Shown one piece after another: positions 15,022 through 21,058 of a stretch of DNA of 36,007 nt. Below the pieces are notes generated by a model. That model had not been told where the DNA came from and ran no database searches. It saw only the letters and a program-made list of their open reading frames with translations. A program made the position numbers and the translations under genes. Where the stretch lies: the UHGV virus genome UHGV-0135626; one strand, given 5' to 3'. The stretch comes from a virus. Every line of letters starts with the position of its first letter. Within the stretch, counting starts at the first letter, position 1.

Positions 15022-15768
15022 ATGTCTAATACCCATGTAAAAAACATCAAACTTGGTGCCTGTAAGGTGTCGTTTGGTGGTGTGGATTTGGGTTACACCA
15101 AAGGTGGTGTTCAGGTTGAAGTAGCCACTGAAACGCTGAAAGTCACCGTCGATCAGTTGGGGCAGACCGTAATTTCCGAATTAGTTCAGGGGCGCAACAT
15201 TACCATCACCGCGCCTCTGGCTGAGTCTGTACTCCAAAACATGGTTGACCTGATGCCTGGTTCTACTCTGAGCGAAGATGACAACTCTGTCACGATCACA
15301 TCTGCACAGGGCGTTAACCTGATTGATGTGGCGAAGGAGCTGGTTCTGACTCCGCAGGACACCACCGACTATGTGTTGACCATCCCGAAAGCGGCAACCG
15401 CGGGCAACTTCACTATGACCTACCAGTCTGATGATGTTCGTGTGTTCTCTGTTCAGTTCAGCGCATACCCGGATGATGAAGGCGTTCTGGGCAAAATGAG
15501 CGGTCCTAAACCGGTAAAAACTGTGTCGATCTCACCGGAATCTCCAACCGTAAAAGCTGGAGAAACTGTGCAACTGACAGCCGAAATCACTCCAGCTGAT
15601 GCCGCAGACAAAACCGGTGTTTGGGAATCCGAAGACCAGGAAAAGGCCACGGTAGATCAAACGGGTCTTGTGCGCGGTGTGGCGCAGGGTACTGCAAACA
15701 TCTCCTTCACCAGCAATAGCGGTTCTAAGAAGGCTACTAAGTCAGTAACGATTAACTCCGCAGATTAA
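15022..15768 (+). CDS. Major tail (tube) protein with C-terminal Ig-like (Big_2) domain
   Basis: Start taken at ATG 15022 (MSNTHVKN) with SD AAAGGAG upstream; the track ORF starts at 14986 without an SD. C-terminal 80 aa match the Big_2 pattern seen in the decoration protein, as on lambda gpV. Confidence 0.7.
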   Translation: MSNTHVKNIKLGACKVSFGGVDLGYTKGGVQVEVATETLKVTVDQLGQTVISELVQGRNITITAPLAESVLQNMVDLMPGSTLSEDDNSVTITSAQGVNLIDVAKELVLTPQDTTDYVLTIPKAATAGNFTMTYQSDDVRVFSVQFSAYPDDEGVLGKMSGPKPVKTVSISPESPTVKAGETVQLTAEITPADAADKTGVWESEDQEKATVDQTGLVRGVAQGTANISFTSNSGSKKATKSVTINSAD

Positions 15769-15782
15769 TCAGTAATTAAGCA

Positions 15783-15810
15783 GAGGCTCAGGATGAGCCT
15801 CTCTTTTAAA
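15783..15810 (+). terminator. Rho-independent terminator after the major tail gene
   Basis: AGAGGCTC-aggat-GAGCCTCT followed by CTTTTAAAA. Confidence 0.7.
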
Positions 15811-15823
15811 AGGATTTTAACCA

Positions 15824-16141
15824 ATGACCAAATTACTCGATCTCGATTCCATTCTGCCTCCGAAGAAAAGCATCAAATTTGGCGGTCAGGAATATCCCAT
15901 CGTTGAAATGACGGTAGGTCTGTTCGTTTCCATCAAGCAGATGGAAGGCAAAGATCTCATGAACATGTCTCCTGTTGAGCAAGTGACAGCTTATGCAGAT
16001 CTGGTTCGTAAGGTTATCCCTTCAGTACCTGACGAAGTTCTTGAAAAACTGACTGTTCCGCAACTCCAGCAGATCTTCACCTTCGCTATGGAAGTGATTG
16101 ATGAAGAAAACGAAAAAGCGGCTGGCGAAGGGGCAAAGTAA
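15824..16141 (+). CDS. Tail assembly chaperone (lambda gpG-like)
   Basis: 105-aa acidic ORF between the major tail protein and tape measure genes, the conserved siphovirus position. SD AAAGGA. Confidence 0.65.
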   Translation: MTKLLDLDSILPPKKSIKFGGQEYPIVEMTVGLFVSIKQMEGKDLMNMSPVEQVTAYADLVRKVIPSVPDEVLEKLTVPQLQQIFTFAMEVIDEENEKAAGEGAK

Positions 16142-16221
16142 TTTCCCGCGATGAATCCGGGACAAGGACCGTCTCAATAGATCTCGGATTCTATTTCAGT
16201 CGTGTAGTTGCTCACTACGCC

Positions 16222-16491
16222 GTGTCGCCATTAGAGCTACTGAACGTTCCTCTCACGATGTTCTGGATGCTCAGTCGCAATATAGACCGTCTGCGTGCGG
16301 AAGAGGATGTCCGCAACTTACAAGTCGCTCGTGCGTCCCAGGCGGATGGCGAGGCTGTGAAGGCGTTCATGGAGGGTTTGCAACTCAGGATTGGAAGACC
16401 AGTCGTAACAGATAAAGTCTACGATCCAAGCCAGGATAAGGCAGACCCTGACGCCAAAGAGCAACTGATGCAAATATTTGGCAGAGGATGA
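16222..16491 (+). CDS. Tail assembly chaperone extension (gpT-like), probably made only as a G-T fusion by -1 frameshift
   Basis: Frame is -1 relative to the G-like gene and open from 16105, overlapping the last 12 codons of G. The track ORF begins with GTG and has no SD. Candidate slip sites are GAAAAAG (16112-16118) and AAAG next to the G stop (16135-16141). Confidence 0.5.
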   Translation: MSPLELLNVPLTMFWMLSRNIDRLRAEEDVRNLQVARASQADGEAVKAFMEGLQLRIGRPVVTDKVYDPSQDKADPDAKEQLMQIFGRG

Positions 16492-16498
16492 CAAGGGA

Positions 16499-19400
16499 AT
16501 GTCACAAAACGTAGAGTTTATCCTGTCGCTGGAAGACAAACAGTTTACAGCGTCAATCGATCGTGCGGGGAAACTGCTTACTCGATTTGGTGAGCAGGTA
16601 ACAAAGCCTGCTCAAAAAATCCAAACCTTTGAACGCTCTTTGGGTTCGGTCGCCCGTATCATTGGCGTTCTGGAAAGCAAGCTCGATTCTACGGCAGATA
16701 AACTACAGGATGTAGCTGCCGGTTTTGAGCTTGCTTCAGATGCTACGCGTAAAATGCGTGGCAACATCACCAGCCTCAATTCTGGTCTTAAAGCCCTGAT
16801 TGAGCGCGTCGATACGACAACTTCTTCAGTAGATAAACTCACCGCGTCATTACGTAAAGTGCAATCAGAGCTAAATGATTTCTCTGATTGGGCGACCTAT
16901 GCAAGCAAAAGCGCAAGCCGCTTTGGTACGGAGGTCAAAGAAGCCTCTGCGTCCGTGAGTGGCATGAATACGCGTCTTAATACCACGACGAAGCGACTCA
17001 GTAATTGGGGTGTCACGACGAGTCAGGCTGCCGAGGGACTGAAAAAGGTTCGTGAGCAGATGGACGAAGTTATCGGACGTCAGCAACTGATTAGCAAGCC
17101 GGTACGCGTTCGTACATCTGGAAGTGGCGATGGTGGTAGCGGGCGGCGTAGCGGCGCTTCTGGCCATAGCGGTAAAAGTAACGAAGGAGGTATGTTCTCT
17201 GGCCTTCGTGGCAACATTTTCCTGCTTGGCGAGATCGGAGATGCAGCCAGAACGGTTACTGACATCATGTTTGGGTGGCAGAAGCCTATTGTTGAAGCTG
17301 CGGCCGAAATGGAACGTATGCGGGTGATGCTTCGAGGGTTGAATAAGGAGAAGTCCAACCCGGGCCAGGCTGCCGCTGATGATATGAAGTACATCGTAGA
17401 CATGGCGCAAAATGCGCCGTTCGCGATGCAGGCGTTAACAGATTCCTTCGTGAAGTTTCGTTCTGCTGGCTTAGATCCAACCGATGGTTCTCTGAAGGCG
17501 CTGGTGGACTCCGTTGCTCGTTTTGGTGGTGATAGTGAGCTGTTGAAACGTGCGGCTGTGGCCGTTCAGCAGATGTCCGGTAAGGGCGTTGTGTCAATGG
17601 AAGAACTACGTCAGCAATTAGGTGAAGCCGTTCCTAACGCGATGCAGGCAATGGCAGACGCCGCAGGCATCACTATGGGGGAACTGACTAAAGCCGTTGC
17701 CAGCGGTACGGTTGAGGCAAAACAGGCGTTGTCTCTGATGTTTGTTGGTCTGCGTGCGGAGAATGAGAACGCAGCGAAAGACATGATGCAAACCTACACA
17801 GGTGCGCTGGCGCAACTTCAGACGTCATTCACGTTATTTGCTGATCGGGTTGGTCAGGCCGGATATCTGGATTCTCTATCGAAGGGGATGAAAGAACTGG
17901 CTTCAATCATGAATAGCGCCGAAGGGATTTCGTTTGCCAATTCTTTAGGCTCGGGGTTAACGACGGCAATCGATGGGTTGCGTCAGCTTGCTCAATGGTT
18001 AGCAAAGAACCAAGAGCTGGTAATTAATCTCGGTAAGGTAGTGGCCGCGATGGTTGCGTTCAAACTGATGCGAGCAGGGATCATGGGGGTAGTTGGCGCA
18101 GGCAGCCAGATGGTTAGCACCTTTGCCACGATGGCGACCGCCATACAGACTCCATTTAACCTCGGCGCTACAGCAGTAACTCGATTCAATCGTGCGGCAC
18201 GTATGGGGCTGGCTCCGATCCCCTCTCTTATTTTCGCCATCCGTGGGGCGATTACGGGGCTTAAAGGCGCTTTTGCTGGATTAACGGCGTTCATTGCAGC
18301 AAACCCTATAGGGGCAGCATTTACAGTTGCCACTGTAGCTGTTGCTGGCCTAATCACGTACATGACCATGCTCCGCAGCGAAACTTCAAAGGTCGTTGAC
18401 GAGATTAGGAAAATACCAGAGGCGATGACGGCGGCCAAACGTGCACAGATGGCGGAGTATAAAGCGCGTCTTGAGCAACAAATCACGCAAAAGGAACAAG
18501 AGTTAAAATCTGGCGAAAAGGTGGTTTATGGGCCGGGTATGGCCGGAACTACAGTAAAGATTAATCAGGATGAACGTAAGCGTATAGAAAATGAGCTAAA
18601 TGACCTTCGTAAGAAACGCGATAAAACTACTGGGGCAATTGAACGCGGAGACATTGCTGTAGCCAAACGTCTTGCAAAAGATGCGGCAGAATCACAGATA
18701 GAGAAAATACGGGAAGAGAATAGAGACTTTGCGGCAACATTCGTGAAAGCCCGGCAAGAGGCTCTGGATAAGATCCAGAAAATCTATGATGACGGTTCAC
18801 TTTCAGATGACGAAAAGAACAAGCTATTGGCACCGTTACGTGAAACGGTAAACAAAAGCTATCTGGAGCCTGCGCAAAAACTGGTTGATTCACTTTCTTC
18901 TCGTAAGAATGCGACCGAGAAGCAAATTGCGACTCTTAATGATCAGCTTGAAAAAGCCAAAAAGGATGGAAATACCGAGCAGATCCAGAAACTGCAAGGC
19001 AGTATTCGTGGTTATCAGGAGCATTTGGAAGCCGTTGCTCAGGAGCTGACTCAGGCAGAGTTCGAGAGAGATAACGCGGCCAAAACTGGTAAGGGCGTAA
19101 TGTCAAACCAGGGGACTGTTCTTGGGTTAGGTACAACTGATAAAGCTGCTCAGAAGGCGCTGGCGCAATATATGCGAAACCAGATGGATTCTGCGACTTA
19201 TCAACGTACTTTGCCTGACGGCACTCCGATGATGGACTTCGAAGGTAAGCCGATTATTGGGCCTAAACAACTCAAGACGCAGCTTAATTTGCAGAAAGCA
19301 TCCAGTGCCAGCTCTCTGGAGAAAATGAGCGATGAAGAGCGTGCCGCAGCCATTGCCGCACTTACTAAAGCTCGTGAACAGGATGCCGCAGCCGCCGAGA

Positions 19401-21058
19401 AAGCAGCCCAACGATCAGCTAATGCCTCGCAGCGTGCGGCCAAGAAAGAACAGGCAGCGCAACAGAAACTGGCGGCCGGATATCAGAAGGCTCTGGATAA
19501 AGCCGATCAGCTTATGGGGCAAATGGGTGAAAGCTCTAAGGCTACGGTATCGTTTGATCAGTCTCTTCGCGATACAACAAAATCGCTAACTGATTTGGCT
19601 AATGCGATTCCTAACGAGTTCATCACTCAAGAGATGATCGACAAGGCGAAAAAACGTCTTGAAGACCTCAAAAATGCGACACCTGAATATCGCGAGATGT
19701 TTAATCGCCGCAATGTTGAGCAGATGATCTCCACTTGGGCACCGGAGGCGGATTCCATTATTAGTGCTGGCTATACGCCGTCTCGTGAAGAGAAAGTTGC
19801 TGATTTCGAAGACACTTACAACCGCAATCTCAAAGCGTTGATAGAACTTCGTGATAAGGCGTCTGATCCTAAAGTCGTGGCGCTTTATACAAAGAAAATC
19901 AATCAACTTATTGCTGCTGGCAATACCGCGCTTATTAAAGAGACGGGGACTGCGACGCAGAAGTTGGCACTGGAATACGAAAGCCTGGCAGAGCAGATCG
20001 AAAGCACCTGGACTGATTTGTTTAGTGGCTTAACTGATGTCCTGACTGATTTCGTTATTAACGGGAAGATGAGCTTCTCCAGCCTGTCTCAGTCCATTTT
20101 GAAAGATATCACCAATATGGTCGTGAAGTCGCAGATCACGCTGCCTCTAATGAACATGTTGGGGATGGGAACCACCGCAGCTGGTAGTTCACAGAGTGGT
20201 AATTTACTGACCGGGGTTGCTTCCGCCGTTGCCAATCAAGGGGTACGAATGGGCAACACTGTTAACGGCGACAAGTCGGTAGGAGAAGCCACGAAGGAGA
20301 CGTCCAGTTCGGTAACTGGATTGGGGCAAACAACACAGCAGACCACCAGCGCAATTGGCACAGCAACAAATGCGATTGGTAGCTGGGTATCAGGGCTATT
20401 TGATAGCACCGAAGCCAAAGATGCTGAGACAAAAGCAGTGAAAGATTCCATCTTCTCGATGCAGAACCTCAGCTCTGTTACCGGCGCGCTGTCTGCCGCG
20501 TTTGCAATGCTTGGAGCTAATGCTTCAGGCTCTGGTAATAAGTGGTTGAATTTCGGCGCGACAGTTGCATCTGGGTTGGTTTCAGTATGGGCAGGTGGTG
20601 GTTTCGACAGTGTGACATCAAGCTCTGCTAAAACCGCAACCAGCAGTGTGGCTGACGGAACTAAAGGCATTCCAGCAATCCCGAAGTTTGCAAATGGAGG
20701 AATATTCGGAAAAGACGGCGTGATCCCGCTCCGGGCATACCAGAAAGGCGGTATTGCTAACTCACCTCAATTAGCGTTGTTTGGGGAAGGTTCTATGAAT
20801 GAGGCGTATGTTCCATTGCCTGATGGTCGAACAATCCCTGTAACGCTCAGTACCGATGGTATGAGTGGAGGAGGAAATGTTCTTTCTCCGGTATCAATTG
20901 AGATCAACGTCCATAGTGACGGTAGCACAACTGAATCCGGCGATACAGAAAGCATATGGAACAATGCCGCTCAACGGATGAAAGCAATCGCGCTTGAGAC
21001 TATCGCTCAAGAGAAACGCCCTGGCGGATCACTCAACCCAAACACTCAACGTAACTAA
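16499..21058 (+). CDS. Tail tape measure protein
   Basis: About 1520 aa, long helical Ala/Gln/Lys-rich protein downstream of the G/T pair; Gly-rich hydrophobic segments in the middle. Start taken at ATG 16499 (SD AGAGGA 10 nt upstream); the track ORF starts with TTG at 16478. Confidence 0.85.
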   Translation: MSQNVEFILSLEDKQFTASIDRAGKLLTRFGEQVTKPAQKIQTFERSLGSVARIIGVLESKLDSTADKLQDVAAGFELASDATRKMRGNITSLNSGLKALIERVDTTTSSVDKLTASLRKVQSELNDFSDWATYASKSASRFGTEVKEASASVSGMNTRLNTTTKRLSNWGVTTSQAAEGLKKVREQMDEVIGRQQLISKPVRVRTSGSGDGGSGRRSGASGHSGKSNEGGMFSGLRGNIFLLGEIGDAARTVTDIMFGWQKPIVEAAAEMERMRVMLRGLNKEKSNPGQAAADDMKYIVDMAQNAPFAMQALTDSFVKFRSAGLDPTDGSLKALVDSVARFGGDSELLKRAAVAVQQMSGKGVVSMEELRQQLGEAVPNAMQAMADAAGITMGELTKAVASGTVEAKQALSLMFVGLRAENENAAKDMMQTYTGALAQLQTSFTLFADRVGQAGYLDSLSKGMKELASIMNSAEGISFANSLGSGLTTAIDGLRQLAQWLAKNQELVINLGKVVAAMVAFKLMRAGIMGVVGAGSQMVSTFATMATAIQTPFNLGATAVTRFNRAARMGLAPIPSLIFAIRGAITGLKGAFAGLTAFIAANPIGAAFTVATVAVAGLITYMTMLRSETSKVVDEIRKIPEAMTAAKRAQMAEYKARLEQQITQKEQELKSGEKVVYGPGMAGTTVKINQDERKRIENELNDLRKKRDKTTGAIERGDIAVAKRLAKDAAESQIEKIREENRDFAATFVKARQEALDKIQKIYDDGSLSDDEKNKLLAPLRETVNKSYLEPAQKLVDSLSSRKNATEKQIATLNDQLEKAKKDGNTEQIQKLQGSIRGYQEHLEAVAQELTQAEFERDNAAKTGKGVMSNQGTVLGLGTTDKAAQKALAQYMRNQMDSATYQRTLPDGTPMMDFEGKPIIGPKQLKTQLNLQKASSASSLEKMSDEERAAAIAALTKAREQDAAAAEKAAQRSANASQRAAKKEQAAQQKLAAGYQKALDKADQLMGQMGESSKATVSFDQSLRDTTKSLTDLANAIPNEFITQEMIDKAKKRLEDLKNATPEYREMFNRRNVEQMISTWAPEADSIISAGYTPSREEKVADFEDTYNRNLKALIELRDKASDPKVVALYTKKINQLIAAGNTALIKETGTATQKLALEYESLAEQIESTWTDLFSGLTDVLTDFVINGKMSFSSLSQSILKDITNMVVKSQITLPLMNMLGMGTTAAGSSQSGNLLTGVASAVANQGVRMGNTVNGDKSVGEATKETSSSVTGLGQTTQQTTSAIGTATNAIGSWVSGLFDSTEAKDAETKAVKDSIFSMQNLSSVTGALSAAFAMLGANASGSGNKWLNFGATVASGLVSVWAGGGFDSVTSSSAKTATSSVADGTKGIPAIPKFANGGIFGKDGVIPLRAYQKGGIANSPQLALFGEGSMNEAYVPLPDGRTIPVTLSTDGMSGGGNVLSPVSIEINVHSDGSTTESGDTESIWNNAAQRMKAIALETIAQEKRPGGSLNPNTQRN

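Follow-up and report, generated by a model that had tools for sequence, protein, structure and literature searches.

The window analysed here is the whole stretch of 36,007 nucleotides from UHGV virus genome UHGV-0135626, read 5' to 3' on one strand. Over positions 15700-16600 it shares 99% identity with Escherichia phage CMS-2020a and with Cyrano (phage-plasmid pLF82 of E. coli LF82) and 90% with Salmonella phage SSU5. By these identities, the source of the stretch is an SSU5/Cyrano-type phage-plasmid. Cyrano produces siphovirus particles with a long tail (259 nm) (PMC9928086), and because it is 99% identical in this region, the tail module is taken to be functional. DNA similarity searches found the segment described below in 785 PLSDB plasmid records, from Klebsiella, Escherichia, Enterobacter, Yersinia pestis, Salmonella, Citrobacter and Cronobacter, and in 12 phage records.

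The segment holds a pair of overlapping reading frames on the plus strand, G-like and T-like (G and T below), placed between an Ig-domain major tail gene and the tape measure gene as in lambda-type G/GT modules. The upstream border of this chaperone slot is the major tail protein gene (15022..15768, +), whose product carries a C-terminal Ig-like Big_2 domain (Pfam match, E 4.6e-26); a 747-nt CDS of SSU5 and Cyrano, labelled as Ig-domain or tail protein, maps to the same positions. The downstream border is the tape measure protein gene (16499..21058, +) of the ORF list, and the annotations of SSU5, Cyrano and pJN2-26 give it the same label. No tRNA was found by a tRNA scan of the window.

Two features of the flanks were recorded on their own account. 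Between the stop of the major tail gene and the start of G lies a 9-bp GC-rich hairpin, AGAGGCUCA-GGA-UGAGCCUCU at 15782-15802, followed by CUUUUAAAA (tail to 15811). The 65-nt segment containing it folds at -17.8 kcal/mol (z = -2.66), and a simple terminator scan missed it because only four U follow. This hairpin may act as a leaky terminator or as a stabiliser, setting how much major tail protein is made relative to chaperone. The tape measure ORF (16478-21058, ATG at 16499) encodes 1519 aa versus the 1525 aa reported for Cyrano, and the six-residue shortfall concerns a protein thought to set tail length.

G (15824..16141, +) is the putative tail assembly chaperone gene of the zero frame in the ORF list and encodes 105 aa (11.7 kDa), ending at the TAA codon 16139..16141 (+). 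The frame of T is -1 relative to G. It is closed upstream by a TGA at 16102..16104 (+), which sets the G/T overlap in this window to 37 nt, and is then open from 16105 to the TGA at 16489-16491 (128 sense codons). The earliest ATG, GTG or TTG in the T frame is GTG 16222, 84 nt beyond the G stop, and no purine-rich Shine-Dalgarno (SD) sequence was found upstream of it. Both the frame relation and the lack of an SD and ATG of its own for T had been given by an earlier sequence-only reading of this DNA, and both are correct. If ribosomes slip by one base on the last sense codon of G, the T-like part (16138..16491, +) would comprise 117 aa (VISRDESG...IFGRG), and the predicted GT fusion (15824-16138 joined to 16138-16491, +) would have 222 aa and 24.8 kDa, with the junction ...AGEGAK|VISRDE....

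Similarity searches gave little direct information on function. G matches phrog_893 (E 4.5e-49) and T matches phrog_1131, both listed with function unknown, and a Pfam search with G and T gave no hits. The AlphaFold model of G (pLDDT 72.5) had its best BFVD matches among proteins named 'Tail assembly chaperone' (top E 3.2e-4, TMq 0.65). The structure model of T was of low confidence and a fold search with it was uninformative.

In the annotated records examined, the chaperone pair appears as two hypothetical proteins and a frameshift is annotated in none. T is entered as a separate ORF in Cyrano, PhiR41_1, SSU5, pJN2-26 and all PGAP plasmid records, natural fused GT proteins were absent among 136 hits, and no mention of a frameshift or chaperone was found in the literature on SSU5 and Cyrano. 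Taken at face value, these entries say that T is a separate protein of 74-89 aa made from an internal start (GTG 16222 or a later ATG), that no fusion exists and that the open frame upstream is incidental. However, the gene callers disagree on where this protein begins, placing it at five internal positions that give 74, 77, 83, 86 or 89 aa, and GTG 16222 has no SD.

The region between the G stop and GTG 16222 was examined in an alignment of 19 diverged sequences whose T proteins are as little as about 50% identical and which reach from E. coli to Photorhabdus, Morganella and Xenorhabdus. From the G stop to 16215, the entropies at the three T-frame codon positions were 0.40, 0.18 and 0.93, and third positions were variable in 23 of 25 codons. 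The 27 codons upstream of GTG 16222 thus evolve, by this substitution pattern, as T-frame coding sequence. The peptide that they encode, KVI[S/T]R...SID[L/F]GFYF[S/C]RV, is kept in relatives at 47-54% identity, and the best-conserved motif of the whole family, IDLGFYF (IDLGFYFSR in its longer form, ID[L/F]xFxF as a pattern), is encoded upstream of any T start codon. Moreover, tblastn alignments to distant phages of Pseudomonas, Rhizobium and Stenotrophomonas reach into the T part upstream of GTG 16222. This coding signature means that independent initiation of T fails to account for the data. Such initiation would also leave the frozen synonymous sites 16135 and 16138 in G unexplained, and it is at odds with the canonical slip heptamers of distant homologues (both described below). 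We therefore regard a separately initiated T as very improbable. Peptides encoded by 16141-16221 in the T frame would be, for example, VISRDESGTR and TVSIDLGFYFSR.

The end of G was compared across 178 SSU5-type loci taken from phage, plasmid, IMG/VR and GTDB collections, which collapsed to 32 distinct 110-nt variants spanning E. coli to Xenorhabdus and Morganella. The same G/T geometry was seen throughout the 178 loci. No X_XXY_YYZ heptamer occurs in frame anywhere in G, and the overlap contains three in-frame Z_ZZN tetramers: A_AAC (16108-16111), A_AAA (16114-16117) and A_AAG (16135-16138). The last of them, in which the zero-frame AAG at 16136-16138 is preceded by A16135, is the proposed slip site (16135..16138, +). 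The string NNN G[C/U]A AAG UA[A/G] around it was unchanged in all 32 variants, so that UAA or UAG always abuts AAG, and the codon before GCA or GUA varied among GGG, GAA, GAG, GAC and GAT.

This conservation is unusual within the gene. Among 21 G genes, only five of the 105 third positions were invariant, those of codons 1 (ATG), 94, 102, 104 and 105, and three of the four that are not the ATG fall within the last four codons (hypergeometric P = 8.7e-5). A16135 stands at the wobble position of an Ala or Val codon, and with a slip at A_AAG it would not be decoded as part of a separate T-frame codon; for these reasons its invariance is best explained by a slip motif. The recurrence of the G/T arrangement in the 785 plasmid and 12 phage records, with the A_AAG-stop string invariant, likewise argues that it is more than chance. 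One invariant third position, that of codon 102 (GAA, 16127-16129), lies outside the A_AAG motif, and the letters GAAG at 16127-16130 never change in the 21 diverged sequences.

The sequence-only reading had expected a programmed -1 frameshift fusing the two chaperone ORFs, had found no classical heptamer in the overlap, and had named two candidate sites, AAAG next to the G stop and GAAAAAG at 16112-16118. The programmed fusion is backed by the comparative evidence, and the absence of a heptamer extends to the full length of G. As for the candidate sites, the one at the stop stood, its core 16135-16138 being invariant in 32 of 32 variants, and the other fell. A shift at GAA_AAA_G, by the ribosome or by transcriptional slippage, could be proposed from the window, where the overlap includes a run of five A and, in frame, the tetramer A_AAA, and the string is present in 21 of the 32 variants. 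In contrast, 19 of the 32 variants have a GGC-to-GGU change that makes a -1-frame TGA (window-equivalent 16126-16128), 12 nt before the G of AAG. This nearer TGA cuts the overlap to 13 nt, confines the shift to those final 13 nt of G, and separates GAAAAAG from T, including in SSU5, the pMT1-type elements and the Cronobacter elements. Diverged relatives read GAAGCCG, GCTCAAC, GAACAAC, GAGCATC and others at this place, and as a tetramer A_AA.A performs far worse than A_AA.G (PMC4066793). The site was therefore excluded as unconserved and cut off in most variants, and a shift there is extremely improbable.

Several other routes from G into T were considered and rejected. The +1 frame after AAG ends after five codons, which rejects a +1 frameshift. 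Transcriptional slippage was rejected because the A runs comprise just 3 and 5 bases and the run of 5 is not conserved; five A are too short for efficient slippage by RNA polymerase. An SD-like AAGGGG (16128-16133) lies 2 nt before AAG-UAA, in a layout resembling the SD-spacer-slip-stop order of the prfB +1 site. It is confined to the E. coli, SSU5 and Klebsiella lineages, and GAAGAA, GAAGAC or GAAGAG is found elsewhere. AAGGGG was rejected as a stimulator because it is missing in most relatives (GAAGAAGCA, GAAGACGUA) and its spacing would favour a +1 shift. No conserved SD at a stimulatory distance (10-14 nt upstream) was found among the relatives compared.

A different way of reading T without a frameshift is termination-reinitiation, in which ribosomes would terminate at UAA and restart on the near-cognate AUU at 16141-16143 (UAAUU), giving a full-length T separate from G. 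The ATT at 16141 is indeed in the T frame and overlaps the stop, and in the Stenotrophomonas phages BUCTxx99 and ANB28 the corresponding place reads TAATG and is annotated as the T start. However, the codon at 16141 is ATT, ATA, GTT or ACA across relatives, which is no conserved start, and A16135 is invariant although a restart has no need of it. Relatives, BUCTxx99 among them, carry canonical slip heptamers, and for lambda gpGT it is established that the T domain is functional only when tethered to G (PMC5009743). Reinitiation as the source of T is improbable on these grounds.

The wider family also gives evidence for the direction of the shift. All 10 of the 10 distant relatives examined have T in the -1 frame and contain exactly one canonical in-frame heptamer near the C-terminus of G, ending in AAA, AAG or AAC. 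These are C_CCA_AAG in Pseudomonas phages ZY21 and Nican01, G_GGA_AAA in Pseudomonas phage hairong, G_GGA_AAG in Rhizobium phages V1VFA-S and B1VFA, G_GGA_AAC in Rhizobium phages RHEph10, RHph_Y2_11 and RHph_N1_10, and A_AAA_AAA in Stenotrophomonas phages BUCTxx99 and ANB28. The -1 relation also holds for relatives with as little as 27% identity. These ten cases suggest that the family as a whole uses -1 frameshifting. Frameshift annotation is also missing from these Nickievirus, Rhizobium and Stenotrophomonas homologues.

The Nickievirus, Rhizobium and Stenotrophomonas pairs share with the SSU5-type pair the protein family (T 27-37% identical), the gene order, the -1 overlap, an A-rich Lys or Asn slip codon near the C-terminus of G, and a hairpin whose 3' arm covers the codons of the IDF motif. 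They differ in having canonical heptamers and a G stop that lies 3-28 nt further on and does not abut the site; in the Rhizobium phages, moreover, a strong hairpin over the homologous IDF codons begins 8 nt after the heptamer. At the corresponding place ZY21 reads GCC CCA AAG GCU UAA, versus GGG GCA AAG UAA in SSU5. As judged from this comparison, what remains of the heptamer in the SSU5 clade is its A-site half alone.

Three observations concern the relatives themselves. At an equal position the Nickievirus phages ZY21 and hairong have different heptamers, C_CCA_AAG (Pro-Lys, L005 1246-1252) versus G_GGA_AAA (Gly-Lys, L189 510-516), a coordinated change that, from the sequences, keeps the site slippery. 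In BUCTxx99 (L008 1258) and ANB28 (L191 558) the ATG overlapping the G stop (TAATG) opens the T frame, and T could there also be made by translational coupling, despite the in-frame A_AAA_AAA 27 nt upstream. A shortened T-like ORF of Nican01 (L009 1342-1572) is labelled 'lnt: apolipoprotein N-acyltransferase', which is almost certainly a misannotated chaperone T segment.

Taken together, our comparative results point to the production of a GT fusion, and we consider it likely that the element makes G and a minor GT fusion by a -1 slip of tRNA-Lys on A_AAG at 16135-16138. According to this model, the majority of ribosomes would translate G (105 aa) and terminate at UAA 16139-16141, and a minority would slip one base back on the tetramer. 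The single enterobacterial tRNA-Lys (anticodon mnm5s2UUU) would leave AAG and re-pair with AAA, and reading would resume in the -1 frame at GUA 16138-16140 and continue to UGA 16489-16491, giving the 222-aa GT with the junction ...EGAK-VISRDE.... When the codon before AAG is GCA, the corresponding -1 codon is GGC, AGC or CGC, and when it is GUA, the -1 codon is AGU or CGU. By the pairing rules, tRNA-Ala on GCA and tRNA-Val on GUA are unable to re-pair with these codons, so that the slip would involve tRNA-Lys only and would be of the Z_ZZN tetramer type, not of the tandem heptamer type. At the moment of slipping, AAG would be in the A site or else in the P site, the A site then being occupied by the stop codon.

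The closest functional parallel is the lambda G/GT pair. As Levin 1993 and Xu 2004 are cited in PMC5009743, lambda gpG and gpGT arise by a -1 shift and the G/GT layout is conserved in long-tailed dsDNA phages. The claim of the sequence-only reading that this locus has the conserved siphovirus G/GT arrangement is borne out by the tail and tape measure flanks, the -1 overlap and the same geometry in relatives. Features in common with lambda are an overlapping ORF pair between the major tail and tape measure genes, a second ORF that lacks a start codon of its own and lies in the -1 frame, a slip position at a Lys codon that completes an A_AAG sequence within a few codons of the G stop, and an expected minor fusion. 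Unlike the SSU5-type site, lambda has a full heptamer, G_GGA_AAG, at which both tRNAs re-pair; the SSU5-type site has only the A_AAG half, with GCA or GUA before it, an abutting stop and a covarying hairpin behind it. No sequence-family link joins the SSU5-type G or T to lambda G or T (no Pfam hit).

The slip motif itself has precedents elsewhere. A_AA.G was the most efficient of 16 Z_ZZN tetramers in E. coli (Sharma et al. 2014, PMC4066793), frameshifting at 5.6% with the IS3 pseudoknot and at about 0.15% without a stimulator, and 87 elements of the IS1 and IS3 families contain tetramer sites (PMC4066793). Natural examples are G_CGA_AAG in IS1222 and A_CGA_AAG in B. subtilis cdd (PMC5009743). 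The sequence-only reading had raised a non-standard slip mechanism; the mechanism is hardly non-standard, since A_AAG belongs to a recognised tetramer class (PMC4066793, PMC5009743). The SSU5-type site resembles those of IS1222 and cdd in its minimal A_AAG after a codon that is unable to re-pair, in the slip of tRNA-Lys alone and in an expected efficiency low enough for a minor product; unlike it, those sites lie in transposase and cytidine deaminase genes and not in a phage tail chaperone. By analogy with lambda, where the G:GT ratio is 30:1 (PMC5009743), the yield of GT is probably a few per cent, which an A_AA.G motif reaching up to 5.6% could supply and which would be what the chaperone pair needs.

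The heptamer site of E. coli dnaX, A_AAA_AAG, has an SD at 10 nt upstream and a stem-loop about 6 nt downstream and shifts about 50% of ribosomes. It shares with the SSU5-type site the slippery tRNA-Lys/AAG interaction and the host group. In contrast, stimulators like those of dnaX at the dnaX spacings were not found in the SSU5-type site.

RNA structure downstream of the candidate sites had been suggested as a check by the sequence-only reading, and a covarying hairpin was found there. This distal hairpin (16153..16191, +) pairs GAAUCCGGGA (16153-16162) with UCUCGGAUUC (16182-16191) around a 19-nt loop, and it begins 13-14 nt after A_AAG and 11 nt after the G stop. Its energy in the window is -11.9 kcal/mol, and RNAalifold predicted its 8-bp core independently. 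In the alignment, 95.3% of cells were paired, compared with 90.0 ± 1.0 in shuffles (0 of 500 as high) and 21-65% with slid partners. One base pair occurs as U-A (14 sequences), G-C (3), A-U (1) and U-G (1), and two additional pairs are changed on both sides. Energy minimisation returned this hairpin for 16 of 19 lineages (-12 to -21 kcal/mol); in Morganella its 5' arm is shifted in register. The usual spacing from slip motif to structure is 5-8 nt (PMC4066793), and the 13-14 nt of the distal hairpin is atypically far, outside this norm. In the tetramer reporter of PMC4066793 a pseudoknot about 5-6 nt downstream was needed for 5.6% frameshifting, whereas the SSU5-type structure stands 13-14 nt away and a stop is adjacent to the motif.

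A small proximal hairpin (16144..16162, +; UCCCG/CGGGA plus GA/UC) lies 5 nt after A_AAG, a spacing that suits a stimulator. It has -8.0 kcal/mol in the window, -7 to -10 kcal/mol in most sequences of the E. coli/Salmonella/Klebsiella type and -1 to -6.5 in others, and it cannot form together with the upper half of the distal hairpin. Its 3-bp core is paired in 100% of sequences and the synonymous site 16146 inside the stem is invariant, but there is no covariation, and the proximal hairpin on its own was rejected for this reason. In a structural model, the proximal stem (16144-48/16158-62) and the lower half of the distal hairpin (16153-57/16187-91) could alternatively form stems 1 and 2 of a pseudoknot, a fold that is sterically plausible. 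However, the pseudoknot model was no better than the plain hairpin (91.6% paired versus 95.3%), and its covariation came entirely from the shared lower stem. A branched structure closed by 16148-52/16224-28, the minimum-energy fold of the single sequence, proved unconserved (74.7% paired versus 71.0% in shuffles), and an Rfam search gave no match. The slip may be stimulated by the distal hairpin, by the proximal hairpin or by a pseudoknot combining both.

RNAalifold also returned a 6-bp long-range helix between GGGCAA of the slip region (16131-16136) and UUGCUC (16208-16213), 72 nt downstream. It was paired in 91.2% of cells versus 89.0% in shuffles, with 9 of 500 shuffles as high, which is weak support. 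In its downstream arm the T-frame synonymous site 16212 is invariant and 16209 is nearly so.

The stop codon itself may belong to the signal. A stop immediately 3' of the slippery codon, as in all 32 of the SSU5-type variants, is the layout of 'shifty stop' frameshifting. Its abutment in every tetramer variant, versus 3-28 nt in the heptamer relatives, fits a contribution of the stop; this contrast is just one evolutionary transition, and T-frame codons that overlap the stop constrain it as well. A more far-reaching proposal is that the SSU5 clade swapped an ancestral heptamer, 8-nt spacer and hairpin for a termination-coupled -1 'shifty stop' design. Peptidyl-tRNA-Lys would then slip -1 on A_AAG while UAA or UAG fills the A site, the hairpin 11 nt past the stop would stand at about the leading edge of the terminating ribosome, and the hairpin or the alternative pseudoknot would tune release against slippage. 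We put this proposal forward tentatively and think it rather unlikely; if true, a phage structural gene would provide a natural example of a -1 'shifty stop' that is shared by a whole family and has its own RNA element.

On the comparative evidence, the SSU5-type site is an unannotated member of the well-known class of G/GT chaperone frameshifts that uses an already characterised minimal motif. The finding is widespread, useful for annotation and modestly surprising. SSU5-like phage-plasmids are very common in clinical Enterobacterales and include the Y. pestis pMT1-type and S. Typhi pHCM2-type elements, and recognising the frameshift corrects the arbitrary truncated start of T and gives functions to phrog_893 and phrog_1131. 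The family would also form a natural evolutionary series from canonical heptamers to a bare tetramer beside a stop, on which it could be tested how much of a -1 signal is dispensable. The mechanistic novelty is small unless the stop codon or the distant hairpin proves to be part of the signal.

Two further records deserve mention. In K. pneumoniae pCRKP18622-1 (L012 1058-1261), an annotated IS1B transposase gene lies about 80 nt past the T stop and occupies the expected start of the tape measure gene, and this copy of the element is probably tail-defective. Two GTDB contigs, one placed in a 'Bacillota bacterium' MAG and one in a 'Candidatus Fimivivens' MAG (L097 and L100), carry the module at 94% and 82% T identity; as carriers of an enterobacterial phage-plasmid module, they are probably mis-binned.
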